A DNA stretch of 33,041 nucleotides from Candidatus Hodarchaeum mangrovi (lineage in GTDB: Archaea; Asgardarchaeota; Heimdallarchaeia; Hodarchaeales; Hodarchaeaceae). Shown piece after piece: positions 3,025 to 26,549 of this stretch (position 1 is the first letter of the stretch; each line of letters begins with the position of its first letter). The stretch spans positions 1 through 33,041 of the forward strand of contig JAEOUE010000116.1 in the NCBI GenBank assembly GCA_016839515.1, written 5' to 3'. The notes beneath the pieces are model-generated. The model was not told the DNA's origin. It saw only the letters and a list, made by a program, of their open reading frames with translations, and made no database searches. The position numbers and the translations under genes are program-made.

Positions 3025-3275
3025 TAGAAATTTTCCACCATAGAATACAAAAAATCTCTCAAATGAGATATAGGAGAAAAGTTATAGTATCTTTCTAATG
3101 AAACAGTATATACCTGTATAATTTTTATTTTTACACAATAACCCTAGAGAATTTATCCGAGTATTTTAATTTGGAATGGATTAAGAATGAGTGTTTTGTT
3201 GATAACTTCATCATGATTTGAAATTTTTATACTCAACCATAATTCTATGAATTACTGCGTTCTCTTCTTAAACCA

Positions 3276-6200
3276 TTGAATAAGACGAAGGATCAGAGAC
3301 ATATGAGTTGTAAGATAATGAAATTGGGTAAATATTTAATCGTTTCAATATTAGGTCTCCAAATTATAGCTAGTGCCTTAATTTTATCCATTAATAATCC
3401 TGTAGTTGTAGGAGAATTCTCTAAACATCTACTAAGGGGATTAGAGTATCCTAATAATTTAGAAGAAAGTGTATACCATTCAGTTCCTAGATTAATGAAT
3501 GAATCCTTGGATTCTTATTCTTTGGTTAAACAAGAAACTTCTACTCCTTTAAAACCAAAAATTCTTGATTCATTTTCATTGCCAAGCTGGAACGGCTTAG
3601 GATTCTCATATCGAAAAAATATCACTATAAATCCAGCTAATATACCAATTGATTTATTAAATTTTCCAGTATTGATTGATTTAGAATCAGATCCTGATTT
3701 GGCAGGCATACAACAAATAAATGGAAATGATTTATTTTTTACCGATGCTCAAGGGAACAAACTGGCATTTGAGTTAGAATATTTTGATAAACAAAATCTC
3801 AATCTTAAAGCATGGGTAAAAACAGATATATCTAGCTCAAGTCCAACAGTAATTTCAATGTATTTTGGAAATTCAACCGTTAGTTCTCAAGCAAATCCAA
3901 CCGGAGTTTGGGGAGCTGATTATATGGGAGTTTGGCATTTAAATAACAACCCTGTAGGAGGCACAATGTTCGATAGTACCTCAAATAATAACGATGGTAC
4001 TCCAGGGGGAAGTATGACATCCAATGATCTTATCAAGGGATTAATAGGAAAAGCCATTGATTTTGATGGATCGAATGATTTAATTAATTTAGGAAATATT
4101 AATTCGAACCTTTGGACAGGAATTACAGTTGAGGCATGGGTTTTCCATGATGTTTTAGGAGATGATCGAGTGATATGTAAATCACCTGATTCAGTAACTG
4201 CTAATCATATTTTTTCTTTAGCCATTGAGACCAGTAACAGATTAAGAGTACGACTTTCAACAGATGGAACTGGTGGAACAGTAGCTTCGAGTTTAGACTC
4301 TTCTGGAACCATTTCTCTTGGAACATGGCATCATATTGCTTTTACATGGAGTAGTACATCTGAAAGGGTCTATTTATATATTGATGGAGCTCAAGATATA
4401 AATAATTTTGCCAAAGACGGTGATTCAATAATGGATTCTACAGTTCCAGTTATAATTGCCAATGTAAATAGTGGAACTGAGAACAGATATTTCGATGGAT
4501 TAATTGAAGAAGCGCGAATTATTAAATCAGCCTTGCCCTCTTCTTGGATAACTGTAGAGTATTTGAATCAGTTTAATCCCTATAAATTTTATTCAGTAGG
4601 AAATCTTGAAAGACCTAGCACATATGATCTCTTTAGATATTCAAAACAACTTACAATAGATCATTCTAAAGTTATAGGAACAGCTGACCATAATCTAATT
4701 AATATATTATTTGATATTTATGATCCAGATTTACGAGTTACTGGGAAATTACCAAATAATGGTGAAAATTTGGTATTTACAAACATCGATACAAAAAATA
4801 ATCTTTATTATGAAGTAGAGGAATGGAATCCGACCTACAATTCTACTCACGCAAGACTACGTGTATGGGTACAAGTTGATACACTTTTTGTGGATAAAAA
4901 TACTCATATCAAGATGTTCTATGGAAACCAAGCAAATTATGGATATTATAGACCTGATATTGTTTGGTCAGATTATTTAGGAGTATGGCATTTAGGTGAA
5001 TCAGTAATTGATGAAGGATCAGCTGTAAATGTGCATATAGATTCATCTACAAATAGTAATCATGGTAACCAGCATGGCAACGATGATATCACAGGAATGA
5101 GTGGATTAGCACAGAATTTAGATGGGACTAATGATTATATTGAAATGGGTGATCTTGATATTCTTGAATTACAAGGAGACCAATTTTTTACTTTATCTGG
5201 ATGGTTTTATCGAGATACTGCAACAACATCAGATGTAATAATCGATAAATTTTATCCACAAAGCCCAGATTATACTGGCTACTTGATTTACATTGATGAA
5301 ACAGATGGATTACTTCATTTTTATCAAGGAGATGATGATGATGATGGAATTCATATGGCTTCCTCAACAAATTTTAATACTGCACCTTCTGGGTGGTACA
5401 GCTTTTATATAACTTTTGATACAGGAGTTAATTCTGACACCTCGTCTTGGAATATTTATATTAATGGAAATGATGACACAGCAATCCGTGAACTATGGGG
5501 AATTGGAGCTCCAAGTTATTCAGGTAATGATGATTTCTATTCATCAAATAATCTTGCATCTTTTACAATTGGAGCACATCATAATCTTTCTAATTATTTT
5601 GATGGAAAGATAGATGAAATTCGCTTTATCCAAGAGGAGTTATCATCTGATCGAGTAGCAACAGAATATAACAATATAAAATCACCAGTTGAATTTTATA
5701 GTATAAGCAATGAACAAGAAAACGAAAATTGGTGGATCGATAGCTCATTCGGGAGGAAAAAGGATATTATTCTTGATAATTCTTATTTTGGATCAAATGA
5801 AGAAATGATTTTTCAATATCCTCGTGCACCTGGTTATACTGAAACTTGGAATCACTTTTCGAAGACTGGTGGAACACAGGATTATCAAACATATGACGAA
5901 CAAGTAGCTGATGATGATTCATCCTATATTTACACTACTGTTAATGATTCTTACCGCTACACTTCTTTTTTCATTAAGGGAATAAGTGATTTAGAAGGAG
6001 ATATAATAAGTTTAAGTGTAAAAACTCGTACAAGACGAACAGGGTCTATAATATCAGGGGAAACACGAAGTTTCATCCGATTAAACAATAATAATTACTA
6101 TGGAAGTTCACGTTGGCCATCATATAGTTATTCTACATTTACTGATACATGGACAACAAACCCATTAACATTATCTAGCTGGACATGGGACGACCTTGCA

Positions 6201-9200
6201 AATCTTCAGCTAGGAGTAAGAGGGAGGATAACCTATACTTCGACTATTCAGCTAAGAATCACACAAGTTTATGTAGAAATCAAATATAGTAATAATGGAC
6301 AGTTGTTTGATTATCCTTTATTGGTTGATATTAAAGATAGTGATTTAAAAACTGATATACAATCGAATGGAAAAGATATTGCCTTTTACGATAGTACAGG
6401 AACTAAATTAACCCATGAAATTTCAATCCTAGATCAAGACTTTAACTCTACACATGCTCATCTTCAAACTTGGGTAAAAATGAAAACACTTTCACTTAGC
6501 AGCAGTACTGTTCTCTCGATGTATTATGGCAATAGTACTATTGAAAGTCAAGAACAGAAATATGATACATGGAATTCTTTTAAAGCAGTTTATCATCTTG
6601 AAGAATCACCAGTAGGACAAATAGTTGATGATTCATTAAAAGGATTCAATTTGACCTCATCTGGTAGTATGAGTTCCGGTGACCTTGTTTCTGGTAAAAT
6701 TGGCAATGCAATAGATTTTGATGGCATCAACGATCAGCTATATTCAACCCAGAATATGCAATTTAATAGCTTTAGTATTTCAGCATGGATTAATTTTGAA
6801 AATGGTAATGGCTGGAGAACCATTTTGAACATTGATCGAACTGCGTCTTACCCTAACTGGCTTCAATTAGCAATTACAGATTTTATTCCGACAATAGATG
6901 ATTCTTCAGGTTCATATACATTTGGTAGTGCTTTAAGTACTTATACTTGGTATTATATCACATATATCTATGATAATAACACTAATGAATTACGTGTTTA
7001 TGTCAATGGGGTTCAAGCAGGTTCTATTAGGTTTTTAGTAATTTCTGAAAGAAATGATGATTATGCTCTTGGTGCATGGGGAACTTCAGACTGGTTTGAT
7101 GGACGAATTGATGAATTACGAATTGGATCTATTCCATATGAAAACGCTTGGATCAAGATGGATTACATTACCCAAGTAAATCCTGGTTCAGTTTTACATA
7201 TCGGAAATGAATATGACCATGAAGCACCCCTTATTAATGATTTTGGAGTTGACGATTTCGGTCAGGGCACTCCAATATTTTGGGCAAACGTAACAGATTG
7301 GGATTCAACTACCTCTGGTGTTAAAATACAAATCAACGAAACAGAATATTCTATGACAAAAAATGGAACAGGAATCTGGATTTACCAAGCTACAGTTGCA
7401 TATAATGATTATATTGAATATGCTATTAGTAATTCAACTGATAATAAAGGAAACTATCTCACTAAACCATCTAATACTAAATCAGTCACTTTTAATTACG
7501 ATACGATTAGCCCAACAGTAGTTGACTGGATTTATCTTACTGATACCAAAGAATTTAGAGCTAATGTATCAGATAGTTGGGGAATCATCGATACAGTTAT
7601 TCTAAATGTTACCTACCATGAAAATATGGGAGATCTGACTGATCTATGGGCTGTTATGAGAAATACAACTTATGGATATGTAAATGATACTATTTTTATG
7701 ATAGAAGGAACAATTAACTTTGTTGTGACTGTAAATGACACAAATGGAAACACATTCACTTCAGCTACTCATCCAGGATATGTAGCAAATAACCCGCCAA
7801 GTATCTCGAATCTTCAACTTTCTAAAAATCCTTTAACTTTAGATTTACCTGTAACAAGTAACGATACTCTATTTGTTTTATATGATTATGCTGATACCGA
7901 GAATGATCTAGAATTTGGGACGGAAATTCGATGGGAAAAATGGAACGGTTCACATTGGATCCTGCAATCAGCTTTCAATGATCGCAAAAATATTACTGCA
8001 GCTTCATTAATCCGTGGAGCAATTTGGCAGGTTCAGGTACACCCAAAAGACGGCAAAGATTTTGGTAATTGGGGTATAACAGGAAATATAACTATTCAAA
8101 ACTCAATCCCAATTGTAACAGGGATTTCTTTAACTCCAAGTGCCCCTATTACCTCCTCTAATTTAGTTGCTGCTTATGTCTGGTTAGACGCAGATACTGG
8201 AGATACTGAACAGGGAAGCCAAATTAGATGGTACCTTGATAATGGAAATGGATCTGGATATTTTTTGTTAACAGCATATAATAATCTAAAAACCTTACCT
8301 TTTAGTGTAACTAGCAAAGGTTATCAAGTTTACTTCAATGTTACCCCATCAGATGGAATTGGATTAGGTAATCAAGTCAAATCACAGATTATTACTATTC
8401 AAAATAGTCCTCCAAGTCTTATTGTTAAAATTAATGGCTTTTCAACTCCAGGAACTGTAGATAATGTTACAGATCTAAATGGAAGTTATATTTATACTGA
8501 CATCGATCTTGACAGTATCAATATTTCATCGTTGGAAATACGATGGTGGCGATATAATTTTTCAAGTAGTCAATTTGAAAATTATGTCAATAATACCTTT
8601 ATTATATCGAATACAATTACTAAAACAACTGATTTATGGCGTGTGGAAATGCGAGTAAGTGATGGCACTACCATAAGTTCGTGGTTTTCTTCTGCCACAA
8701 TAAGTATTGGCGTATCTCCCAATACTCCTCCTGAAGCTTTATTTGTAAACCTTACATCAAGTAATCCAGTCGCTGGGGGTTATCTGTATGCGAATTATAC
8801 CTATTATGATTTAAATGGAGATCCTGAAGCCAGTACAACATTTAAATGGTTTAGAAATGGAGTTCACCAGCCTCAATTTGATGGAATGCAGCAGATTTCT
8901 ACGTCTCTAATAAAAAGTGATAATTGGACTGTTTCAGTTCGTCCACAGGATATTTATAATGATTATGGAAACTGGAGTACAAGTGAAATAATTAAAATTT
9001 TAAATACAGCTCCTACAGTAATAACAGCGACAATATTTCCAGCTTCTAACGTGTATACATCAAATATTTTATTAGCTAATTTTCAAGTTGATGATATTGA
9101 TGAAGATAGTGTTACTACCTATTCAATTGTATGGTTGAATGGAACAAAAGAAATTTCAGAACTAAATAACCATACTGAAGTAACAGTAGCATTTACTAAG

Positions 9201-12200
9201 AAAGGAGAGGTATGGAAATATATTGTAAGAGTTTATGATGGAGAAGCATGGTCAAATAACTTTACTTCATCTTCAATAACAGTTTTAAACTCATTATCTT
9301 ACTTAGAAAGTGTTACTTTAATTGGTGGTCGTAACACCTCTCAAGATGTAGGATTTATTTACTCCTTCAAGGATATTGATAATGATATTATTGATACTGG
9401 AAAAACTAAGATTAATTGGACAATTGAATTTGAGGGTGGGGGGAATATTACTGTTAATGGAGTTTGGACACTCTCACATGTATATTTCTCGGCAGGTGAT
9501 TATATTACAATCCAAATCACTCCTCATGATGGAGAAAGTCTTGGATTGGTTTGGGAAAGTTATAGAGTAAGATTAATTATCGGAAATGCAATTCCTCAAG
9601 TTCAAGGACAGCCTAATATTCTCGCTCCTAATAATAGTACAATTTATTACGCATCAGGAAAATTATCTCTAAATTATTCAGCATATGATGCTGATTTTGG
9701 GGAAAGTAGTTCTTTATATAATCTTGATTTCGATCTTGAAGGATATGTTGTAGGAGCACAATACCGTTGGTATCGTAATGGAATTTTAATGTCTGATTTA
9801 ACTACTCCAACCGTTTCTGTTAATTATTTAGCAAGAGGACAAATATGGAAAGCTGGTGTTCGTATTAGAGACCGATTTGGAAGCTACAGCAAATGGGTAA
9901 ACTCTTCATCAATTTTAATCATTAATAGCTTACCATATATTACTTCGTTCCAAGTTTTAAATCCAAATGTTAGATCAGATCAAAATCTTGATATTAAATT
10001 CTCATTTTATGATTACGACCTAGATACAATAAACATTTCTAAAACACTCATTTATTGGTATAAGAATTCTTTCCTTATTTCAGGAACAGAAAATTCAACA
10101 GTAATCTCAGTAGAACAAGGGATAAATCTTTATTACGTGACTATCAGGCTTTATTCTGATTATTACATTCGAGGAGATAATATAACTGTAGAGGTCCAGC
10201 CTCACGATGGTCTTAACTGGGCTATTGTGGTCAATACAAGTTCTACAATTATGATTAGGAATGCAAAACCAACTGCTTATAACGTAAATCTATTAGCTAA
10301 TGGAACATCATCCATTGCTTATACTATTGATCCATTGAATGTTTCTTGGGCTTATTTTGATCTAGATAATGATCCTGAAGTTTCTATGGAAGCAAAAATC
10401 ATCTGGCGGAATAAAGGAATAATTCAACCAATGTTTGAAAATTTTACTTCTATTAATCCTATAAATACCCTAAAAGGAGACATTTGGAGTGTAGAAGTTC
10501 TTGTTTATGATGGATTTGAATGGTCTAGCATTGGGAAGAGTTCTCCACCAATATCAATAATTAATAGTCCACCAGTAGTATTTTCTGTCATAATAGAAAG
10601 TAATTCCCATAATAGGACAGAAACATATGCAGATACTGATTTAGTCTTAGATTTATTGGATAATGTGAATTTTACTGATGTTGATGGAGATTTTATACTC
10701 TGGTATGAATCAGACATTAATTGGTTTAGAAACTCAATTTATATTCCGATGTATGATAATTTAACAATCCTACCTAGTACTGCAACTACAAAAGGAGAAA
10801 TTTGGTATGCAGTCTTAAGAATTACTGATGATCTCAAGATCTGGTCGTTAAATATCTCTTCTCAAACGATTTTAATTGTAAATAAAGCTCCTATAGTTTT
10901 AGGCGTTTCACTTGATGGAAATGAATATAGCGGTTTCTTTGTGGAAGACGAAAACATCACGATAATTATTAATTTATTTGATGTAGACATTGGCGATAAT
11001 GATTCCTCATATCTCTATTGGAGTGTAAATGGAAATTATTTATCACAATTTGATAATCTTCGTACTATTTCAAGTAAATATACTACTCCAGGAGATATTT
11101 GGAGTTTAGAAGTAATTGCATCAGATGGTTTTAGAAATGCTACAACAATTTTTCCCTTTAGCTTTGATATTGAAAGCCGTCCAAGCATTGAAAATATTAC
11201 CACGGAGATTCTTCAAGAGTCTGATGGACAATATTTGATTTCATCACTTATAACTGATGCATTAAATCATTCTATTGAATTAGTTAGGTATAATTTATTT
11301 ATAAATGGAGCAATATTATCTGATTCTGGGTTTATGGCACCTAATTCTACAGGACATTGGAGATTTTCATATGATTTATTAAGCAATGAAAATAACAGCT
11401 ATTTTGGCACGATAGCGACTGTTTACATTACTGCACGATCAAATATAGGAGTAACAACTGTACAAAGTTTTAATTTCACTTTAATTGATGGAGTTGCTCC
11501 ACGAGTGTCTAAATCAGCTGGATCACTTGGTGTTTATTTCAAACCAGATAAAGATACAAATCCAACAAACTTGACTTTCTTTGCTGAAATTGAGGAATAT
11601 GGTTCAGGCGCTGAACAAATACTTCTTTTCTACTATTTTGAGCTAATAGAGGAAGGAGAAGGAGCTTTCTTAGCACAAGAAGATTATAATGTTGTAGAAA
11701 TGATATATCAACGAACTGTAGGTTTAGTACAGATTTATTCAGTAAGCATACCTTTTTCAGCTAATGGATCAAATTTTAATGTCTTATACTATGTTTCTAC
11801 ATTGGATTTGTCTGGAAATCTTAATGAAAACGCATTTGATATTAGAAATTATCCTGATCGAATAGAAAATGAGCGATTAATATATAGGGTACCAGGATTA
11901 CCTGAATGGGTTCTTTTAGTTGCAGGATTAGCTGTATTTCTAGTAATTATTGGTAGTATAGTTTATGTCAAATTTATTCGAAAACCTGAAATAGTAGGAC
12001 TTGATAAAGAACTAGTAATAGCAAAATTAAAAAACATCATAGATTCTGATGTTGTGAACGCTCTCGATACTCATACTATAGGAGTAGTTGTATCCTTTTT
12101 CGACCAACGTCATGGACCAATCCCAATAATCGTAATTCCTGAGATCCTAAAGGATAATTTTGCTAAGCTTGTTGAAATGTCTGATCGATCATTCAGCGTT

Positions 12201-12566
12201 ACAGGATTCTCTGAAGATTTTGAAATCGAAGTGCCTTCAGGTTATGATTTTGTTTTAGCCCTAGGTACTAGAATTAGTGTTTTAACCTATGGTTTTTCAC
12301 TTGAGCGTCCTGAAGCTAGAGGAGGAAGAGAAAATATCACTGTTAATTTTCTGATTCATAAAGAACTCTTCCCTCTCGTTAATCAATTTGTCCCTGAAAT
12401 TCAAAAAGAAGTACATCAAATACATATCATCATGGATAAGGAACCCAATGAAAAAGAAAAGATCTTAAAGAATATTTTTGAATTACGAAAATATCTTTCA
12501 AAGATTATTCTGTCTTATCAAGAAATTTATGGAACTACAGAGCTTTTATTAAGTGAGGAAAAATGA
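3276..12566 (+). CDS. Giant single-pass surface protein: 3x (DUF2341 + LamG/ConA-like), Ig/cadherin-like repeats, TM helix, cytoplasmic longin/uDENN-like domain
   Basis: Uninterrupted 3096-codon ORF; the true start is probably ATG 3303 or 3318. N-terminal hydrophobic signal (KYLIVSILGLQIIASALIL). Three units show YRK.ITI..FPVL.D..WV..MY.GN..W...WHL..DFDG.ND..FDG.IDE. About 11 NxxP/DxDxD/W/DG repeats follow, with many NxS/T sequons. TM WVLLVAGLAVFLVIIGSIVYV at 11907-11969 is followed by KFIRK and a ~200-aa tail. Confidence 0.9.
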   Translation: MNKTKDQRHMSCKIMKLGKYLIVSILGLQIIASALILSINNPVVVGEFSKHLLRGLEYPNNLEESVYHSVPRLMNESLDSYSLVKQETSTPLKPKILDSFSLPSWNGLGFSYRKNITINPANIPIDLLNFPVLIDLESDPDLAGIQQINGNDLFFTDAQGNKLAFELEYFDKQNLNLKAWVKTDISSSSPTVISMYFGNSTVSSQANPTGVWGADYMGVWHLNNNPVGGTMFDSTSNNNDGTPGGSMTSNDLIKGLIGKAIDFDGSNDLINLGNINSNLWTGITVEAWVFHDVLGDDRVICKSPDSVTANHIFSLAIETSNRLRVRLSTDGTGGTVASSLDSSGTISLGTWHHIAFTWSSTSERVYLYIDGAQDINNFAKDGDSIMDSTVPVIIANVNSGTENRYFDGLIEEARIIKSALPSSWITVEYLNQFNPYKFYSVGNLERPSTYDLFRYSKQLTIDHSKVIGTADHNLINILFDIYDPDLRVTGKLPNNGENLVFTNIDTKNNLYYEVEEWNPTYNSTHARLRVWVQVDTLFVDKNTHIKMFYGNQANYGYYRPDIVWSDYLGVWHLGESVIDEGSAVNVHIDSSTNSNHGNQHGNDDITGMSGLAQNLDGTNDYIEMGDLDILELQGDQFFTLSGWFYRDTATTSDVIIDKFYPQSPDYTGYLIYIDETDGLLHFYQGDDDDDGIHMASSTNFNTAPSGWYSFYITFDTGVNSDTSSWNIYINGNDDTAIRELWGIGAPSYSGNDDFYSSNNLASFTIGAHHNLSNYFDGKIDEIRFIQEELSSDRVATEYNNIKSPVEFYSISNEQENENWWIDSSFGRKKDIILDNSYFGSNEEMIFQYPRAPGYTETWNHFSKTGGTQDYQTYDEQVADDDSSYIYTTVNDSYRYTSFFIKGISDLEGDIISLSVKTRTRRTGSIISGETRSFIRLNNNNYYGSSRWPSYSYSTFTDTWTTNPLTLSSWTWDDLANLQLGVRGRITYTSTIQLRITQVYVEIKYSNNGQLFDYPLLVDIKDSDLKTDIQSNGKDIAFYDSTGTKLTHEISILDQDFNSTHAHLQTWVKMKTLSLSSSTVLSMYYGNSTIESQEQKYDTWNSFKAVYHLEESPVGQIVDDSLKGFNLTSSGSMSSGDLVSGKIGNAIDFDGINDQLYSTQNMQFNSFSISAWINFENGNGWRTILNIDRTASYPNWLQLAITDFIPTIDDSSGSYTFGSALSTYTWYYITYIYDNNTNELRVYVNGVQAGSIRFLVISERNDDYALGAWGTSDWFDGRIDELRIGSIPYENAWIKMDYITQVNPGSVLHIGNEYDHEAPLINDFGVDDFGQGTPIFWANVTDWDSTTSGVKIQINETEYSMTKNGTGIWIYQATVAYNDYIEYAISNSTDNKGNYLTKPSNTKSVTFNYDTISPTVVDWIYLTDTKEFRANVSDSWGIIDTVILNVTYHENMGDLTDLWAVMRNTTYGYVNDTIFMIEGTINFVVTVNDTNGNTFTSATHPGYVANNPPSISNLQLSKNPLTLDLPVTSNDTLFVLYDYADTENDLEFGTEIRWEKWNGSHWILQSAFNDRKNITAASLIRGAIWQVQVHPKDGKDFGNWGITGNITIQNSIPIVTGISLTPSAPITSSNLVAAYVWLDADTGDTEQGSQIRWYLDNGNGSGYFLLTAYNNLKTLPFSVTSKGYQVYFNVTPSDGIGLGNQVKSQIITIQNSPPSLIVKINGFSTPGTVDNVTDLNGSYIYTDIDLDSINISSLEIRWWRYNFSSSQFENYVNNTFIISNTITKTTDLWRVEMRVSDGTTISSWFSSATISIGVSPNTPPEALFVNLTSSNPVAGGYLYANYTYYDLNGDPEASTTFKWFRNGVHQPQFDGMQQISTSLIKSDNWTVSVRPQDIYNDYGNWSTSEIIKILNTAPTVITATIFPASNVYTSNILLANFQVDDIDEDSVTTYSIVWLNGTKEISELNNHTEVTVAFTKKGEVWKYIVRVYDGEAWSNNFTSSSITVLNSLSYLESVTLIGGRNTSQDVGFIYSFKDIDNDIIDTGKTKINWTIEFEGGGNITVNGVWTLSHVYFSAGDYITIQITPHDGESLGLVWESYRVRLIIGNAIPQVQGQPNILAPNNSTIYYASGKLSLNYSAYDADFGESSSLYNLDFDLEGYVVGAQYRWYRNGILMSDLTTPTVSVNYLARGQIWKAGVRIRDRFGSYSKWVNSSSILIINSLPYITSFQVLNPNVRSDQNLDIKFSFYDYDLDTINISKTLIYWYKNSFLISGTENSTVISVEQGINLYYVTIRLYSDYYIRGDNITVEVQPHDGLNWAIVVNTSSTIMIRNAKPTAYNVNLLANGTSSIAYTIDPLNVSWAYFDLDNDPEVSMEAKIIWRNKGIIQPMFENFTSINPINTLKGDIWSVEVLVYDGFEWSSIGKSSPPISIINSPPVVFSVIIESNSHNRTETYADTDLVLDLLDNVNFTDVDGDFILWYESDINWFRNSIYIPMYDNLTILPSTATTKGEIWYAVLRITDDLKIWSLNISSQTILIVNKAPIVLGVSLDGNEYSGFFVEDENITIIINLFDVDIGDNDSSYLYWSVNGNYLSQFDNLRTISSKYTTPGDIWSLEVIASDGFRNATTIFPFSFDIESRPSIENITTEILQESDGQYLISSLITDALNHSIELVRYNLFINGAILSDSGFMAPNSTGHWRFSYDLLSNENNSYFGTIATVYITARSNIGVTTVQSFNFTLIDGVAPRVSKSAGSLGVYFKPDKDTNPTNLTFFAEIEEYGSGAEQILLFYYFELIEEGEGAFLAQEDYNVVEMIYQRTVGLVQIYSVSIPFSANGSNFNVLYYVSTLDLSGNLNENAFDIRNYPDRIENERLIYRVPGLPEWVLLVAGLAVFLVIIGSIVYVKFIRKPEIVGLDKELVIAKLKNIIDSDVVNALDTHTIGVVVSFFDQRHGPIPIIVIPEILKDNFAKLVEMSDRSFSVTGFSEDFEIEVPSGYDFVLALGTRISVLTYGFSLERPEARGGRENITVNFLIHKELFPLVNQFVPEIQKEVHQIHIIMDKEPNEKEKILKNIFELRKYLSKIILSYQEIYGTTELLLSEEK
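7788..11170 (+). repeat. About 11 tandem ~100-aa Ig/cadherin-like protein repeats within the giant ORF
   Basis: Units start NNPP, NSIP, NSPP, NTPP, NTAP, NSLS, NAIP, NSLP, NAKP, NSPP, NKAP. Each has an aromatic-x-x-x-D-x-D/N/E-x-D-type loop, a conserved Trp strand and a late V-x-P/V-x-DG strand. The units are diverged at DNA level. Confidence 0.8.
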
Positions 12567-12571
12567 TTTAT

Positions 12572-14827
12572 TCAATTATCCTCTAAAAGAGCTAGGTAAT
12601 GCTTTAATTTTTCAGAAGTCTCATCAACTTCCTTTTCTTTTTTATCAACTTGTTCTGGTATGAATTTAGGGATACGATCTTTCCAACTTTTCTTCTGTTT
12701 AGCGGTAGCTTGAATAAATGTCTGAAGAGAAGCATGAATCAACCGGCTTGCAAAATCAAAAGCTCCATCAGTTTCAAGAGGGATTTGCATTCTATCTTTA
12801 ATTAAGTGACTAATTCCTTCAATAGATAGGCTTCCATCAATTTCAACATTTCCAATGGGATGTCCTCTCTGTAGAAACGATAAAATGTAATTAGCATTAC
12901 CATTTGGTTTTGGTTCTAAAGTAAATGCAACACCTTGACTATCTGGTAATAGAAGGTAGTTACCTTGAACCTGAACTTCCAATGGAACTTTGAATTCGGA
13001 TAACGGGATTTTTTTAATATCCATCGATCCTTCTTTCGGAGACGTAACTAAATCTTTTGTTGATTTTAATTTTTTGACTTTTAGACTCTGGATTGCCTTA
13101 TGAATAATATTCGCTGCAAAATCGAGAGAAGCTTTTCCACCTTCAAAGATTCCCAAAGTTAACATACTCAATTCATAAGCCATAAAGTAGATGAGCTCAT
13201 TTATTGTTACATTTGGTGAAAGAATTGACCCACCAATAAGCTCATATTTATTTTGACCAGTAAAGATATAGAAATTTAATTGAACATTCACAGCTTCCTC
13301 CCCAGCTAACTCTATTCTAAATCCGAGGTCACGAGTATCTGGCAAAGTTATTATCCCCTCAATATTTTCTGAAATCACAGGAATATCGATACTAGCTTTT
13401 TCAATTGGCTTTTCTTTGGCTGGAGGTAGGACAATTTCTTCTTTAACTTTCTCTTTCTGCTTTTCTTTTACTTTTCGCTCTTCTCTTAAATCCTTTAAAT
13501 AACCCTCAGCAATTTGTGCTATAGATAAATTCGGACGTTCTGTAGCAATAACTAAACATTGAACCATCTCATCTTCAGCGATTAAGTTTTTAAGATATGC
13601 ATTAAAAAGTTCCGTAATTCGAAATTTATTCAGAGTACTAATATGTTTTAATTTTTGGTTCTTAACAAATGGGATGTATTTTAATATGACATTTAGTACT
13701 AGAGGAACAGGGATCCCAGATCTAGCTGCCATTTCAAAGAGATCAACATACCCAGAATTCATTAAATCAATTGCTTGTGCTTTTTCAATACGATAATAAT
13801 CAATAAGATGAACAATTTGCTTATTTTCTAATTCTTTCTCAATGGTAAGAGATTCAGAGGAAACAACTTTTATTTCTTCCGTTACAGTCTCAGGTTGTTT
13901 AGGAAAGGAGGATTGGTATGTAGAAGAAGATTTACTGGCTTCTGAAATAAAATTTTCATTTTGAACTGGCTCTGGTGTCATTTTATTATTTAGGGAATTT
14001 TCCGCAAAAGCTTTAGCTTCAGCTTGAGGTTTATTAGTAACAGCAGTGGACAAAAGGGATTGGAGGCGTTGTAAAATGGCAGGATCTCCAGCTTTAGATT
14101 TATCAGCTTGCATTATTGAAATTGTATGTGATCCAACAGGTTGATCTGAAGTTATTGCTGCTTCTGGTTTCTTTAAAATAATTGAACTATCAGCATATTC
14201 CTCAATCAAACCGATTTTACGCCCTTCTACAAATTCACTCTCTGAAAGCGAAGGCATTACGAGTTCAAAGATTCTTCCAAATGCATCAATAACTGTTTCA
14301 GGTTTATAAATCGTCGTTCTAAAAAATCTTAATGATTTAGGATTATATTCAAGTTGAAATTGTTCCTTTAATTGAGAATGAATACTTTCATAATTTGGGC
14401 TAGCACGAAGTAAATCATTTTTATGAAGAAAAACAAAGACTTCCGCTTCAGGTGAAAAAGTATTCAGTTTTTCTAAGCATGCTGCAAAATATTGAATCGA
14501 ATTATTTCGGGTTGTTTTATTTGCAACATCAATTAAATAAATAAAAGTTTTTACAGAAGAAAAAACAAACGGACTAAAGCCGCTTAGAAACCTCTTTAGA
14601 AAAATCTTCTGTCCTCCAAGGTCAACGATGTTAATTGGAGTATCTTTCACATTAAGTGATAGTCTTTCATAGTTTATTGTAGCAGATAGGGAACTAACTT
14701 CCTCAGTTCTCTTTTTTAAAAAGAAAATACGTTTAACCGCTGTTTTACCTGCTTCAGAAAGACCAGCGATTAGAATCTTATAACCTAACCTTTGAGTAAT
14801 TTCTGAATCCGAAACCCATTCGCTCAC
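12572..14827 (-). CDS. Rag/Gtr1-family small GTPase with a ~560-aa C-terminal extension
   Basis: G1 GLSEAGKT, G2 ATINY, G3 DLGGQ, G4 HKND (Rag-type His), G5 TTIY. GTG start. A low-complexity linker, a helical region and a duplicated C-terminal domain follow. Confidence 0.85.
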   Translation of the reverse strand: MSEWVSDSEITQRLGYKILIAGLSEAGKTAVKRIFFLKKRTEEVSSLSATINYERLSLNVKDTPINIVDLGGQKIFLKRFLSGFSPFVFSSVKTFIYLIDVANKTTRNNSIQYFAACLEKLNTFSPEAEVFVFLHKNDLLRASPNYESIHSQLKEQFQLEYNPKSLRFFRTTIYKPETVIDAFGRIFELVMPSLSESEFVEGRKIGLIEEYADSSIILKKPEAAITSDQPVGSHTISIMQADKSKAGDPAILQRLQSLLSTAVTNKPQAEAKAFAENSLNNKMTPEPVQNENFISEASKSSSTYQSSFPKQPETVTEEIKVVSSESLTIEKELENKQIVHLIDYYRIEKAQAIDLMNSGYVDLFEMAARSGIPVPLVLNVILKYIPFVKNQKLKHISTLNKFRITELFNAYLKNLIAEDEMVQCLVIATERPNLSIAQIAEGYLKDLREERKVKEKQKEKVKEEIVLPPAKEKPIEKASIDIPVISENIEGIITLPDTRDLGFRIELAGEEAVNVQLNFYIFTGQNKYELIGGSILSPNVTINELIYFMAYELSMLTLGIFEGGKASLDFAANIIHKAIQSLKVKKLKSTKDLVTSPKEGSMDIKKIPLSEFKVPLEVQVQGNYLLLPDSQGVAFTLEPKPNGNANYILSFLQRGHPIGNVEIDGSLSIEGISHLIKDRMQIPLETDGAFDFASRLIHASLQTFIQATAKQKKSWKDRIPKFIPEQVDKKEKEVDETSEKLKHYLALLEDN

Positions 14828-14985
14828 GATAATCCCTTGATTTTATAGCTTATTGAGAAAGTAATTTGTCTATTGAGATGTATTATCATATTTCTATGAG
14901 TTATGAATTATAGATTCTTTTTAATGCAATGCTAACTAATATATTAGAAAAGCTTAATTAAAAGAATATCATTTCAAAAATCAAT
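14828..14985. promoter_or_regulatory. Probable bidirectional promoter region between the two GTPase genes
   Basis: 158-bp AT-rich gap between head-to-head starts, with several TATA-like tracts and the palindrome CTAATATATTAG at 14936-14947. Exact elements cannot be assigned. Confidence 0.45.
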
Positions 14986-15897
14986 ATGGCAACTCTTCAA
15001 ACAATTCAAAAGGTAGTCTTTCTAGGCTTAGGCCATTCTGGGAAATCAAGCATTAAATCAGTTGTTTTTGAAGGTAAAAGCCCAGAAGAGGTTATGGATT
15101 ACGCTGCGACAATTAACTATACCCGTTCGACAAAAGGGGTTTTAGACAGTGCGTTTCAAATATTCGATTGTGGAGGGCAAGAGAATTTTATTTCAGTATT
15201 TGTAGGTGATCAAGCAGAATTTATCTTTTCTGATGTAATCGTGTTAATCTGGGTTGTGGATGTCTCTAATATGGATCAAATTAGTACTAGTAAATTCTAT
15301 TTTGACCATGCTCTTAAGAGACTAAATCAATATTCCCCTGAAGCGGAAATCTATGTTTTTTTTCATAAAAATGATTTGATTATACAAAATCTTCAAAAAC
15401 AAGTAATAGAAACAATGGAACAATATTTTGTTTCTCCTTATGATAATAAAATCACCTATCGTGCAACTTCTATATTTAATCAGTCTATTTATCTTGCGAT
15501 TGGAGAAATTATTCGTACTTTGATGATAAAGTCAACTAAAGCTCAAACTGTAAGCGAGGCTATTCGAGAATTTTTAAAACAGAATAAAGAGCTAGGAGGA
15601 GTCTCGATTTATACAGCAGAAGAGGGTCTTCCAGTTTTTGAGGAAGGCGAACTAGCAGAACAAATAATTATCCCCGCTAATTTGTGTTTAACAACAAATG
15701 AAAGGATTGGGTCTGAATTTAGTGTTACAGATGTTTTTAAAACCACTATTGAAACTAATGACTATATTTTTGTTTTTCAACATTTAAAAACAACTCAAGA
15801 ACTCCTTTTATCAGGGATTGCACGAAAAATTGCCCCCTTGCAATATGTTATGGTAAAAATGGAACAACTAGCAACTATTGTGAAAGAGTTATTATAA
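14986..15897 (+). CDS. Rag/Gtr1-family small GTPase with a C-terminal roadblock/longin-like domain
   Basis: G1 GLGHSGKSS, G2 ATINY, G3 DCGGQ (as in RagA/Gtr1), G4 HKND, G5 TSIF. The C-terminal ~115 aa show a helix, GGVSIYTAEEGLPV, a helix, beta strands and a final helix, typical of the roadblock/profilin-like fold. Confidence 0.88.
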   Translation: MATLQTIQKVVFLGLGHSGKSSIKSVVFEGKSPEEVMDYAATINYTRSTKGVLDSAFQIFDCGGQENFISVFVGDQAEFIFSDVIVLIWVVDVSNMDQISTSKFYFDHALKRLNQYSPEAEIYVFFHKNDLIIQNLQKQVIETMEQYFVSPYDNKITYRATSIFNQSIYLAIGEIIRTLMIKSTKAQTVSEAIREFLKQNKELGGVSIYTAEEGLPVFEEGELAEQIIIPANLCLTTNERIGSEFSVTDVFKTTIETNDYIFVFQHLKTTQELLLSGIARKIAPLQYVMVKMEQLATIVKELL

Positions 15898-16708: not shown

Positions 16709-17644
16709 TTGGATTTACTCGATAAATCTATTTTATTTGAATTAAGCTCAAATTGTCGGGTATCTTTTACTTTTCTTGCTCAAAAATACGGAGTTACATC
16801 TAATACAATCAAAAATAGAGTGAAAATTTTAGAAGAACAACAAATCATAAAGAAATATATTGTAGAGCTAAATCCTAAATTATTAAATCTAAATACTGCC
16901 ATTATTTGGATAAAATTTCCCTCTTTAATTAATACGGATACTTTTTTAAAACTTGGCCAGAATGAAAACATTTCTGCCATAGGAATAGGATTAGATTCGG
17001 CGTTTTTAATTATTAACTATCTATCAAATAATGAATTAGCACAAATGAAAGATTTAGTTTTGAAACAAATAGATACTGAAGAGATCATCGTATTTCCAGT
17101 TTTACCACCTCTTTCTATCAAAACCCTGATTCCTAAAAGGAATTTAGAAGAAATTAATGATATTGAATGGTATATTTTATCTCTTTTACGGCATAATGCA
17201 AGAATAACCTTGAGTAATCTTTCTAGGAAAACAAATCTTTCAGTAAAAACCCTCAGACGAAGAATCGAAACACTCCATTCCGATTCTATTGCTTTTTTTA
17301 CAATTCAAATGAACCCAAGTGTTCTTAAGAAAGGATTAATGGTAATTTTTGCCCTTGAGCTTAAAAAATTAACTTTAGAATCTCAAACCTTGATAGAAAA
17401 GGAGGTAAGAAAAAAATTAGGTGAAAAATTTTGGGTTAGTTGGCAAGTTGTAGATAGACCAATTATTCTTCTCGCATTTCAAGCCAATAATATGTTAGAA
17501 GTATCAAACATCTCTAAAACCTTATCTGCTATTGAAAAAAACCCTATATCTATTCAAAAATTAATAGGAGAAAAATTTGAATATTTTTCAGATCTATTTG
17601 ACCATTTATTAGATAAAAAAATAAACAAAATTAAAATAAACTGA
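16709..17644 (+). CDS. Lrp/AsnC-family transcriptional regulator with two tandem wHTH-effector modules
   Basis: MDLLDKSILFELSSNCRVSFTFLAQKYGVTSNTIKNRVKILEE and a second copy, IEWYILSLLRHNARITLSNLSRKTNLSVKTLRRRIETL. Confidence 0.85.
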   Translation: MDLLDKSILFELSSNCRVSFTFLAQKYGVTSNTIKNRVKILEEQQIIKKYIVELNPKLLNLNTAIIWIKFPSLINTDTFLKLGQNENISAIGIGLDSAFLIINYLSNNELAQMKDLVLKQIDTEEIIVFPVLPPLSIKTLIPKRNLEEINDIEWYILSLLRHNARITLSNLSRKTNLSVKTLRRRIETLHSDSIAFFTIQMNPSVLKKGLMVIFALELKKLTLESQTLIEKEVRKKLGEKFWVSWQVVDRPIILLAFQANNMLEVSNISKTLSAIEKNPISIQKLIGEKFEYFSDLFDHLLDKKINKIKIN

Positions 17645-17654
17645 AAATATGACC

Positions 17655-18323
17655 TTATTTTTGATTTCCGCTACTAAAACAATGTGAGATTTTAGTATAC
17701 CATGAATCTTCATCCAATAATATAAGGAGGAGCCTCAGAGTATCTAATAATGACTCTATATTTTTCCAATTCAACTGACTCACTAAATCGGCAAGACTTT
17801 TATCAGCATTTCTAATTAAATTTTGAGCTAATTCCCCCTTTGCTGAGAATAGGTCTATCAAATTGTTTCTAAAACATTCTACATCCACAATTTTGTTCAG
17901 ATGAGATTCCAATACTTTAGCCACTCCTGTATAATAGAGATACTTTTGTTTTTCAGTCTCTTCACACACCTCTTCAGATTTTGTTTTTACAAAAAAGATT
18001 TTTGCAGTTCTCATATAAAGGGTTTGGGTATTACGCTTTCCTTTGTAGGGAAATTTTCGCATTCCAGCTGATACAACTAATTTATAGTTTTCCAAAATTC
18101 CTAAATGCCTATAAATAGTTTTTTTAGACTTTTCAACACCTGAAGCATCAAGTTCTCTTTTTAAATCATCAACAGTCATAGGATTATTAGTTTTTCGAAG
18201 GATATTCAGAATATTATTGAGATTAGGGTCTTGAAACAGCTTAAGAACTTCAGGGTCAGTAATATCTTTGACAAGTGGCTGTAAATAAGAAATCTCATCA
18301 ACAAAATTATTTTCAGAGTTCAA
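17655..18323 (-). CDS. Winged-helix (ArsR-like) transcriptional regulator
   Basis: FQDPNLNNILNILR..PMTVDDL..KSKKTIYRHLGILENYKLV..TLYMRTAK. Confidence 0.8.
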   Translation of the reverse strand: MNSENNFVDEISYLQPLVKDITDPEVLKLFQDPNLNNILNILRKTNNPMTVDDLKRELDASGVEKSKKTIYRHLGILENYKLVVSAGMRKFPYKGKRNTQTLYMRTAKIFFVKTKSEEVCEETEKQKYLYYTGVAKVLESHLNKIVDVECFRNNLIDLFSAKGELAQNLIRNADKSLADLVSQLNWKNIESLLDTLRLLLILLDEDSWYTKISHCFSSGNQK

Positions 18324-25799: not shown

Positions 25800-26549
25800 T
25801 TAGGCATCAAAAATTTTATTACTTTCTGAATTATAGTACACATATTCTTCAACAAGAATAGATAAATCTTTACTATTCTTTGATAAAAAAGTGAATATAT
25901 CATCTACAAACTTCATTAATGCAATCTTTGCTCTAGAATCCATTGGTAGAGGAAACTCTTTTAGTATTTTATTTTTTAGGAAGATCAATTTTTTTCTATC
26001 GATTTCTGATTGAATCTTTCGTACTTCGGAATCGAAATCCGTCTCACGTAACCATGGATAATATAGAAAAAGCTCACTTCCCATTGTTTTGTTTGAAAAG
26101 CTATCTTCAAAATCAATTGCCCAAATTTGGTCTGAAGTTATAAGATAATTAGCCCCATGCCGATCTAAAGCTCCTATCCAGGCCTCAAATACAATTAATT
26201 CCTTTAACTTTGTTTCTATCCTGTTTCTACTCTTCTGTAATTCTTCACCTCCCTCAATCCAAAATTGGAGTAAGCCATAAGAATGTCCTATTTTTGATAA
26301 TATAGATTGAGGAATTGGTATTTCAAGAAATTGGGCTAATATGGAAATAATATATTCAGTTAAAAGAATTTTAGGACTTAACTTTTTCCATAACCATTTA
26401 TTATTTTCAGTATCAGTAAAAACAAAGGCTTTTTTTTTATAATTTGTTCCTCTGACAGAAATTGTATCGATGGAGTCCACTAATGAGAGAATTTTCTCGT
26501 GTGAGAATATTGGATAGATTTTGATGTCTTCTTGAGTGGAACCTTCCAT
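25800..26549 (-). CDS. HipA-like / PI3K-PI4K-superfamily atypical kinase
   Basis: WLWKK (beta3 Lys), TEYIISILAQFLEIPIP (alphaC Glu), FEAWIGALDRHGANYL (catalytic loop) and WAIDFEDSF (Mg-binding). Confidence 0.75.
   Translation of the reverse strand: MEGSTQEDIKIYPIFSHEKILSLVDSIDTISVRGTNYKKKAFVFTDTENNKWLWKKLSPKILLTEYIISILAQFLEIPIPQSILSKIGHSYGLLQFWIEGGEELQKSRNRIETKLKELIVFEAWIGALDRHGANYLITSDQIWAIDFEDSFSNKTMGSELFLYYPWLRETDFDSEVRKIQSEIDRKKLIFLKNKILKEFPLPMDSRAKIALMKFVDDIFTFLSKNSKDLSILVEEYVYYNSESNKIFDA

Follow-up and report, generated by a model that had tools for sequence, protein, structure and literature searches.

A predicted longin tail on a giant surface protein encoded beside two Rag/Gtr-type GTPases in a Heimdall-group archaeon

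Several eukaryotic longin domains belong to GTPase-activating protein (GAP) complexes and carry a glycine-proline (GP) motif. The accessible part of PMC12290439 places this motif where the beta1-beta2 loop ends or beta2 begins in FLCN, NPRL2, SMCR8 and C9orf72, and describes it as missing from FNIP2, NPRL3 and non-GAP longins. The same part of that paper reports that the motif lies next to the arginine finger and that longins of Heimdallarchaeia have both – with the question whether the partner GTPases are Arf-related or Rag/Gtr posed, and left open, in its section 2.6. Longin-GTPase fusions have been described in a cultured Lokiarchaeon, and gene order in one cultured Asgard archaeon (MK-D1) does not match GTPases to regulators (PMC10933270, as far as its accessible part goes). 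Here we describe a locus in Candidatus Hodarchaeum mangrovi (GenBank assembly GCA_016839515.1, contig JAEOUE010000116.1) in which a giant surface-protein gene, encoding a predicted longin at its C-terminal end, lies beside genes for two Rag/Gtr-type GTPases. The window – the whole 33,041-nt stretch analyzed – is contig C28 of the archaeon's assembly (G000; 4.0 Mb, 348 contigs, 91% complete) and has a G+C content of ~32%.

Our reading, to which we assign a probability of roughly 0.55, is that the tail of the giant protein is a membrane-anchored Rag GAP within a three-gene module of Heimdall-group Asgard archaea. The predicted fold, two conserved motifs, a rearranged synteny, joint presence and absence of the genes, and domain fusions together point to a functional link between this longin and Rag-type GTPases, and probably a physical one. 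The module is laid out as follows.

3276-12566, + strand: giant surface-protein gene; 3,096-aa open reading frame (ORF) from TTG, single-pass, stop codon TGA at 12564-12566
12567-12571: 5-nt spacer (TTTAT) separating two convergent stop codons
12572-14827, - strand: long Rag/Gtr-type GTPase gene; 751 aa, GTG start, gene end at 12572-12574
14828-14985: AT-rich divergent spacer of 158 bp separating the two GTPase genes
14986-15897, + strand: short Rag/Gtr-type GTPase gene; 303 aa, with GLGHSGKS at residue 14, DCGGQ at 61, HKND at 127 and a C-terminal part of ~110 aa

An earlier note, made from the DNA letters, had placed three ORFs at these positions with 5 nt between the first two stops and the GTPases head-to-head, and the coordinates were confirmed. 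It had given the giant ~3,090 aa; the 3,096-aa ORF bears this out, with a correction of the start, as the database copy of the protein begins at ATG 3303 and has 3,087 aa, rather than beginning at TTG 3276. Its assignment of both neighbours to the Rag type was upheld by the Pfam and PDB matches described below. The note had further read the locus as a receptor that would relay contact with a surface, glycan or partner cell through one helix to a folliculin-like GAP, and those elements of this reading that are open to computational testing were all supported.

The giant protein and its predicted longin tail

The features of the giant gene on which the argument draws are these.

11982-12563, + strand: predicted cytoplasmic tail, aa 2903-3096; two short helices followed by a longin domain (beta-beta-alpha-beta-beta-beta-alpha-alpha-alpha)
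12114-12119, + strand: GP motif G2947-P2948 (tail positions 45-46), the first residues of longin strand 2 (E45-52)
12318-12320, + strand: near-invariant arginine R3015 (tail position 113) in an ARGG loop between longin strands 4 and 5
11898-11972, + strand: transmembrane (TM) helix, aa 2875-2899, followed by K-F-I-R-K (positive-inside)
3327-3395, + strand: N-terminal hydrophobic segment, aa 18-40, from a hydropathy scan; signal peptide or N-terminal anchor
3720-4550, + strand: first DUF2341 plus Laminin_G_3 (ConA-like lectin/glucanase) module, aa 149-425, from Pfam
7773-11075, + strand: about ten tandem repeats of ~100 aa, aa ~1500-2600, each with a V/I-x-P-x-D-G-like motif (motif positions 1588-2514), read from the sequence

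Structure prediction with 37 homologues as the alignment yielded a tail model with a predicted local distance difference test score (pLDDT) of 94.9 and a predicted template modelling score (pTM) of 0.90, in which strands (E) and helices (H) follow one another as E32-41, E45-52, H54-74, E84-91, E97-108, E116-126, H127-134 and H137-153. We aligned this model to each of 48,161 representative chains and ranked the matches by Z. The top match was a Lokiarchaeota longin (8yqg_B, Z 13.7, root-mean-square deviation (rmsd) 3.0, 141 residues aligned), and the next a chain of a folliculin complex (6nzd_H, Z 11.9, rmsd 2.6, 135 aligned). C9orf72-SMCR8 chains (Z 11.4 for 7o2w_A and 10.3), the Lst4 longin (4zy8_C, 11.2), GATOR1 (8fw5_B, 10.8) and the SEA complex (8adl_S, 10.2) came after these, and a second folliculin-complex chain scored 9.3; the identities of the matched subunits within their complexes are presumed ones. 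The eight best matches thus comprise an Asgard longin and chains of three GAP complexes, and they stand 1-3 Z above the longins of guanine nucleotide exchange factors (GEFs). Lower ranks were taken by DENND1A (8.7), TRAPP (8.2), VAMP7 (7.9), the small subunits of AP and COPI (7.5-7.8) and Mon1-Ccz1 (7.4), and roadblock chains reached only 5.8-6.3. Foldseek alone was noisy for this tail, returning LOV/PAS chains among the longins at E 1e-4 to 1e-2, which the Z-score searches separated; re-alignment by Z of Foldseek's top 1,000 gave the same order, with 8dhb_J, which belongs to the active form of the FLCN GAP complex, at Z 12.8 (135 residues aligned, rmsd 2.7). These comparisons of a predicted model support a longin of the folliculin/NPRL2/SMCR8 kind rather than a generic one.

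One related candidate, a DENN-domain Rab GEF, was tried and rejected. Only the longin part of such a protein is present, the core DENN and dDENN being absent, and DENND1A/B score Z 8.6-8.7, below the GAP longins; the giant has no DENN domain because the protein ends ~10 residues after the last longin helix. The longin fold of the ‘longin/uDENN-like tail’ that had been proposed is supported by the model (Z 10-13.7 to longins of the GAP complexes and an Asgard longin).

The tail belongs to a sizeable family. A scan of 1.84 billion representatives returned 148 proteins at E <=0.001, 127 of them at E <=1e-10, and every named member is annotated as a ‘hypothetical protein’. Proteins that end in this domain range from ~200 to 5,809 aa in length and vary in their ectodomains, and a TM-grade segment directly precedes the domain in 101 of the 114 rows examined. 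Among near-full-length tails, G45 and F40 are found in 104/104 and P46 and R113 in 103/104, and these four residues are invariant across families that share only 19-26% identity, which places the GP motif and the loop arginine among the most conserved residues of the family. R3015 is a candidate arginine finger, its putative equivalence to the fingers of FLCN, NPRL2 and SMCR8 resting on longin topology; the beta1-beta2 and beta4-beta5 loops of the model would be neighbours at the same sheet end, which would set R3015 beside the GP motif. As a sequence signature, the GP/arginine combination favours a GAP over a GEF or scaffold.

We scanned 400 genomes of the phylum with a profile of the tail alone. 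Strong matches (E <1e-28) were found in 19/21 genomes of family f1, 1/2 of f2, 22/31 of f4, 9/12 of f7 and one genome of f32, and weaker ones (1e-9 to 1e-14) came from a further six families, among them f20 with 46/135 genomes. We examined seven ORFs with weak matches from five genomes of other Asgard families and found that six carry an N-terminal longin fused to a GTPase domain, the seventh being a longin without a GTPase. The fused domain is Gtr1_RagA in 4/7 and Ras-family in 2/7; three of the Gtr1_RagA matches have E 1e-20 to 1e-24, and the fourth, in an ORF cut by the locus end, has E 4e-9 with Arf as the best family. Five of the seven longins, including all four of the Rag-type fusions, show a sub-threshold match to Pfam Folliculin (18.7-22.5 bits vs a cut-off of 23.3). 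Aligned by hhalign, the tails and the fused longins match with a probability of 98.75% (E 1.5e-16, 144 columns), and the GP and ARG columns coincide.

In a hydropathy scan of the giant, the TM helix at aa 2875-2899 is the only TM-grade segment besides the N-terminal one. N-x-S/T sequons number 65 in 2,834 ectodomain residues (2.29 per 100 aa). The corresponding density is 0.52 for the tail and 0.53 and 0.66 for the GTPases, and these values fit an outward glycosylated ectodomain and an inward tail. Pfam matches Laminin_G_3 (E 1.7e-38) and DUF2341 (E 9.9e-18) to three stretches each of the ectodomain, only the best stretch being positioned, and the region looks adhesin-like. By its sequence, then, the giant is predicted to be a single-pass surface protein with a variable, glycan-rich LamG/repeat ectodomain outside and a conserved 194-aa tail in the cytoplasm, in agreement with the type-I membrane protein with a lectin/adhesin-like ectodomain that the earlier note had read from it. 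Within the genus, ~300 ectodomain residues next to the membrane (window 11043-11897, + strand) are conserved along with the TM helix and tail, and profile matches to this combined region span positions 6-494 of alignment A1.

The two GTPases and their linkage to tail genes

Gtr1_RagA (PF04670) is the best Pfam family for both GTPases, at 106.9 and 133.1 bits (cut-off 22), with Arf second at 41.8 and 37.4. Both have complete G motifs (GxxxxGK[ST], DxGGQ and HKND), and their best sequence matches in the PDB are Gtr1 and RagA (E 1e-18 to 1e-21), followed by two Lokiarchaeota Rag-like proteins (1e-9 to 1e-12), RagC/Gtr2 (1e-5 to 1e-10) and then Arl proteins. In the long form, a strongly conserved G domain is followed by a linker that varies, then by a helical domain and a pair of tandem repeats.

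14228-14827, - strand: G domain of the long Rag, aa 1-200; GLSEAGKT at 22, DLGGQ at 69, HKND at 135
13433-13840, - strand: helical domain, aa ~330-465, resembling the GatB/GatE helical tail domain
12674-13402, - strand: two tandem beta5-alpha2 repeats, aa ~476-585 and ~609-718

The likeness of the helical part to GatB/GatE comes from 3h0l_B at E 0.015 and 3kfu_I at Z 8.5, and an NCBIfam GatE match is far sub-threshold. The two repeats align to each other by BLASTP at E 6e-5, and in a wide structure search they gave weak rows only and no clear solved match. Folded alone, aa 330-751 reached a pLDDT of 75.5 and had no Foldseek match at E <=0.001. The last 15 residues of the long Rag (ETSxKLxxYLxLLE) are kept across relatives. 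In the short Rag, the pattern of predicted elements in the C-terminal ~110 aa is roadblock-like by eye only. A tree of 53 G domains, which came with long-branch warnings, groups the long Rags of f1, f32 and f4/f7 into one clade with moderate support (91/77) and places the short forms in separate clades.

We next consider how often tail genes and Rag-like genes occur together. For families other than that of the window, 20 loci with tail-part matches (families f4, f7 and f32) were picked for contig room, blind to their neighbours. Rag-like genes adjoin the tail gene in 16/20, and Gtr1_RagA was the best Pfam family for 13/13 of the neighbours submitted. The usual order is a tail gene of ~1,600 aa, a same-strand Rag gene of 500-670 aa after ~20-100 bp and a convergent Rag gene of 410-445 aa. 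Separately, tail genes of ~1,600 aa in f4 often stand two or three in tandem, with only the last adjoining the Rags (L073 = G022:C160, L068, L076 and L081).

Whole genomes were also compared. A closed genome of 3.08 Mb (G015) has a single tail gene and, at E <=1e-12, four Rag-like genes, of which two lie 0.2 and 2.1 kb downstream of the tail gene, within 2.8 kb. In the closed genome of a sister from the same genus (G016), the tail gene is absent and the Rag-like genes are limited to the other two, with ORF lengths as in G015. Likewise, four tail-less genomes of g9 (84-90% complete) are without the long and the 445-aa Rag types of the tail-bearing g9 genome. Long-Rag genes with visible context nearly all lie <=10 kb from a tail gene.

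In the window's own genome, PF04670 has 26 matches at E <=0.001, eight of them at >=79 bits, and there are six further tail copies. One, on contig C112 (2,141 aa), has the 3' end of a short Rag gene before it and a 321-aa Rag gene 75 bp after it. Another, on C235, is convergent with a long-Rag 3' end, and the remainder of the long Rag and a short Rag divergent from it are found at the edge of C186; C235/C186 is a second copy of the window arrangement, divided over two contigs. The tail copies on C261 and C289 have no Rag neighbour.

Close relatives were surveyed by a pattern scan of one genome per species, giving 40 loci, all from Heimdall-group metagenome-assembled genomes; the downstream flank is <2.5 kb in 7/40 of these, and the gene start is contained in only 12/40. 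A Rag-like ORF lies <=200 bp from the tail gene in 11/40 and <=10 kb from it in 14/40. Seven loci (L043, L051, L052, L054, L055, L056 and L057) have a convergent long Rag and a divergent short Rag, as in the window; L037 and L041 have a short Rag 54 bp downstream of the tail gene on the same strand, and L027 and L032 a long Rag just upstream on the same strand.

From eight strong Rag-like ORFs per 4.0 Mb, simple arithmetic puts the chance of finding one in a +/-10 kb window at ~4%. The linkage of tail and Rag genes is far above this chance level, that is, well beyond what the number of Rag-like genes per genome would lead one to expect, and it persists from family to family although the genes have been rearranged. 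The expectation that such a neighbourhood survey would find the linkage above chance was thus borne out, in 11/40 close loci (<=200 bp) and 16/20 distant ones (adjacent).

Other genes at these loci are listed here as observations in their own right. On C112 (L087), an 8186-10900 + strand gene encodes a 905-aa HEAT/TPR-repeat protein (HEAT E 3e-32, with a weak ChAPs Arf1-binding match); it sits between the Rag gene and a second, convergent tail gene, and a 132-aa ORF just before it looks like a further helical repeat of the same kind. On C186 (L091), a tubulin/FtsZ-family ORF (PF00091, E 5.5e-18; 3043-4377, - strand) directly follows the paralogous short Rag, and the end of the contig (9922-11196) holds a 425-aa ORF similar to the long Rag outside its GTPase part. 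Contig C98 (L092; 1430-5201, + strand) has three Rag-like genes on one strand with no tail gene nearby, and similar three-Rag clusters occur in G066 (4152038-4158498), G074 (C52) and G071 (C30). Within the window, two helix-turn-helix (HTH) regulator genes lie downstream of the module at 16709-18323, one for a 311-aa double AsnC-type HTH protein and one, on the other strand, for a 222-aa winged-helix protein. A 249-aa ORF at 25800-26549 (- strand) has a sub-threshold PI3_PI4_kinase match (E 8.8e-4, 19.7 bits vs a cut-off of 27.1). The remaining window genes are unrelated housekeeping genes: aminotransferases, pirin, M32 carboxypeptidase, ThyX and an ECF transporter.

Weighing a proposed membrane-anchored Rag GAP

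If the tail is a Rag GAP, it would dock at the membrane on the G domain of one or both neighbouring Rag/Gtr-type GTPases, and R3015, held beside G2947-P2948, would enter the nucleotide pocket and speed GTP hydrolysis. Eukaryotic longin GAP sites comprise two longins, and pairing of receptors would therefore be a simple coupling to the outside: pairing driven by a ligand or by contact would assemble the active two-longin site. No second longin gene was found among the Pfam-scanned window proteins. Binding, GAP activity (as opposed to GEF or scaffold activity), the choice of substrate GTPase, receptor pairing and the direction of signalling are all points that we infer.

Several observations weigh against this reading. 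The first concerns gene order: the giant and long Rag genes are convergent in the window, and co-transcription is therefore excluded here. The earlier note had raised this as a caveat (‘convergent, not operonic’), which is true of the window and is softened by the other families of the class, where the tail and long Rag genes are mostly co-directional and ~20-100 bp apart. The second concerns linkage. There is no Rag gene in 4/20 of the distant loci (L070, L082, L083 and L085), and 26/40 of the close loci have no Rag-like ORF in view. A closed genome (G066) has 5-6 tail genes and nine Rag-like genes, with one tail gene 6-9 kb from a long/short pair and none adjacent; Rag-adjacent tail genes are 1/5 in G074, and 2/8 are near a Rag gene in G071. 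Genomes of the window's genus have 5-8 tail genes each, with 1-3 Rag-linked, and those of other families 1-4; linkage is looser in the genus, and we conclude that the tail family has expanded, with Rag linkage in only some members. We give no P-value for the linkage because loci of related genomes are not independent.

The remaining points against a Rag GAP concern the proteins themselves. The tail has no Pfam match, including to Folliculin (PF11704) or NPR2 (PF06218), even at E <=10, NCBIfam was uninformative, and the tail profile has no sequence match in the PDB. A RagA-type/RagC-type pair was considered and dropped: both GTPases are nearest to RagA/Gtr1 and are therefore not an obvious A-type plus C-type pair. 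A roadblock domain was not found in aa 330-751 of the long Rag, where no roadblock chain was listed among the structural matches and the order of elements in the repeats differs. Finally, longin domains are more often platforms for GEFs than GAPs, according to the accessible part of PMC10933270.

This last point leads to the alternative that survives best, though we consider it unlikely: that the tail binds Rag-type GTPases as something other than a GAP – a Ragulator-like membrane anchor or platform, or an exchange factor – and that the GTPases are recruited or activated at surface-protein sites. The linkage and the fusions apply to such a role equally, the tail sits right at the membrane after the TM helix, and the same part of PMC10933270 describes longin and roadblock dimers as mainly GEFs or platforms. 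Structure bears on both sides, as DENN and TRAPP longins remain clear matches (Z 8.2-8.7) but rank below the Asgard longin and GAP-complex chains that make up the eight best, by 1-3 Z. The residues the family conserves most also speak for a GAP, since they are the loop arginine and a GP motif that is reported missing from non-GAP longins (PMC12290439, accessible part).

A second alternative reverses the direction of control. Here the Rags would use the tail as a handle with which to place, cluster, traffic or remove giant surface proteins, in adhesion, protrusions or motility, similar to the steering of adhesion complexes by MglA and MglB in Myxococcus, and the ectodomain would be cargo rather than sensor. 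In its favour are the adhesin-like look of the ectodomain and the occurrence of the tail on proteins that differ in length (200 to 5,809 aa) and in ectodomain, with a TM segment before it in 101/114. The surplus of tail genes over Rag-linked ones in the genus (5-8 against 1-3) fits one GTPase set serving many tails. Our observations agree with either direction of control, but we find this alternative doubtful, as the other families have only 1-4 tail genes per genome, and in 16/20 of their sampled loci a tail gene stands beside the GTPases, which looks more like a dedicated pair than a sorting handle for general use.

That the genes are neighbours without physical contact, through shared regulation or history only, with another GTPase (Arf-like or Ras-like) encoded elsewhere as the partner of the tail, would fit the majority of tail genes that have no Rag neighbour, the Ras-type fusions (2/7 ORFs) and the position of MK-D1 GTPase genes generally outside longin-gene operons (PMC10933270, accessible part), but is very improbable in view of a linkage that persists across families despite changes of order and strand, the joint presence or absence of the three genes in closed sister genomes and the 4/7 ORFs in which a homologous longin and a Rag-type G domain are fused.

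The membrane-anchored Rag GAP can be extended to a fuller and much more tentative proposal: a receptor system of the Heimdall group in which paired giants would form a two-longin, arginine-finger GAP site that switches off a dedicated Rag pair, with folliculin/GATOR1 machinery of shared origin. The claim of ancestry is the weakest part of this proposal. If the proposal is true, this would be the first prokaryotic receptor directly fused to a regulator of eukaryote-type small GTPases.

Comparison with known systems

Our literature search returned no paper on transmembrane longin receptors beside Rag genes, with the proviso that overlap with the 15 Asgard longins of PMC12290439 is possible. The words longin, Rag, roadblock and folliculin were not found in the main text of PMC10307638, no relevant passage was found in 10.64898/2026.10.28.762692 and no statement on synteny in 10.1101/2024.02.28.582541. 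Within the literature searched, GP-motif Heimdall longins and longin-GTPase fusions are already in print, but neither a receptor-anchored form nor synteny of such a form with a Rag pair is.

The module offers a matched candidate pair of longin and GTPase, drawn from three independent kinds of genomic evidence – rearranged synteny, joint presence and absence in sister genomes, and domain fusion. It also places a longin of the GAP type on the inner end of a surface receptor, and the question of where Rag and nutrient signalling came from thereby becomes testable at the bench with three small soluble pieces (the tail and the two G domains). The system is a candidate for a pre-eukaryotic receptor-to-GTPase switch, in an archaeon of the group closest to eukaryotes.

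Among eukaryotic complexes, the closest in fold is FLCN-FNIP (yeast Lst7-Lst4), a GAP for RagC/D and Gtr2. The tail matches its longins (Z 12.8 for 8dhb_J, 11.9 for 6nzd_H and 11.2-12.2 for Lst4) and shares with it the GP motif of strand 2; the conserved loop arginine of the tail is a candidate counterpart of the FLCN arginine finger, and the tail is associated with Rag/Gtr-type GTPases at the genomic level. Unlike FLCN, the tail has neither a DENN domain nor a Pfam Folliculin match, no FNIP-like partner gene was seen, and a TM helix and giant ectodomain are fused to it, whereas FLCN is soluble and recruited to lysosomes.

GATOR1/SEACIT (NPRL2-NPRL3-DEPDC5; Npr2-Npr3-Iml1), the GAP for RagA/B and Gtr1, is likewise similar to the tail in structure (9o5a_H, Z 11.5; 8fw5_B, 10.8; 8adl_S, 10.2), and it is to RagA/Gtr1 that both neighbouring GTPases are closest by sequence. 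One Atlas neighbour cluster carries PF06218 (NPR2) on 19% of its members, which we take as a lead only. The module differs in that it has no counterparts of NPRL3 or DEPDC5, its tail is predicted to be membrane-integral and there is no membership at the level of sequence. C9orf72-SMCR8(-WDR41), a GAP for Arf and Rab, resembles the tail at Z 10.3-11.8 and has the GP motif; in contrast, it acts on Arf, is soluble and heterodimeric, and contains DENN domains, while the module shows no partner with WD repeats.

Two further systems invite comparison by arrangement. Like Ragulator (LAMTOR1-5), the tail would be a membrane-attached alpha/beta platform associated with Rag GTPases, but Ragulator is built from roadblock domains and a lipidated scaffold that bind the C-terminal roadblock dimer of the Rags, whereas here a longin is carried on a transmembrane protein. 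MglA-MglB of Myxococcus also ties a small GTPase and a GAP of the roadblock/longin superfamily to surface adhesion machinery; MglA, however, is not a Rag, and MglB is a soluble roadblock dimer with no fusion to a surface protein.

The nearest relatives are other Asgard proteins: the GP-motif longins of Heimdallarchaeia (PMC12290439) and the Asgard longin-GTPase fusions (PMC10933270; PDB 8yqg), with which the tail shares the motif pair, the fold and, for the fused longins, homology at the profile level. The accessible parts of these two papers describe their Asgard longins as soluble or GTPase-fused, whereas the longin described here is the tail of a giant surface protein and is syntenic with a Rag pair.

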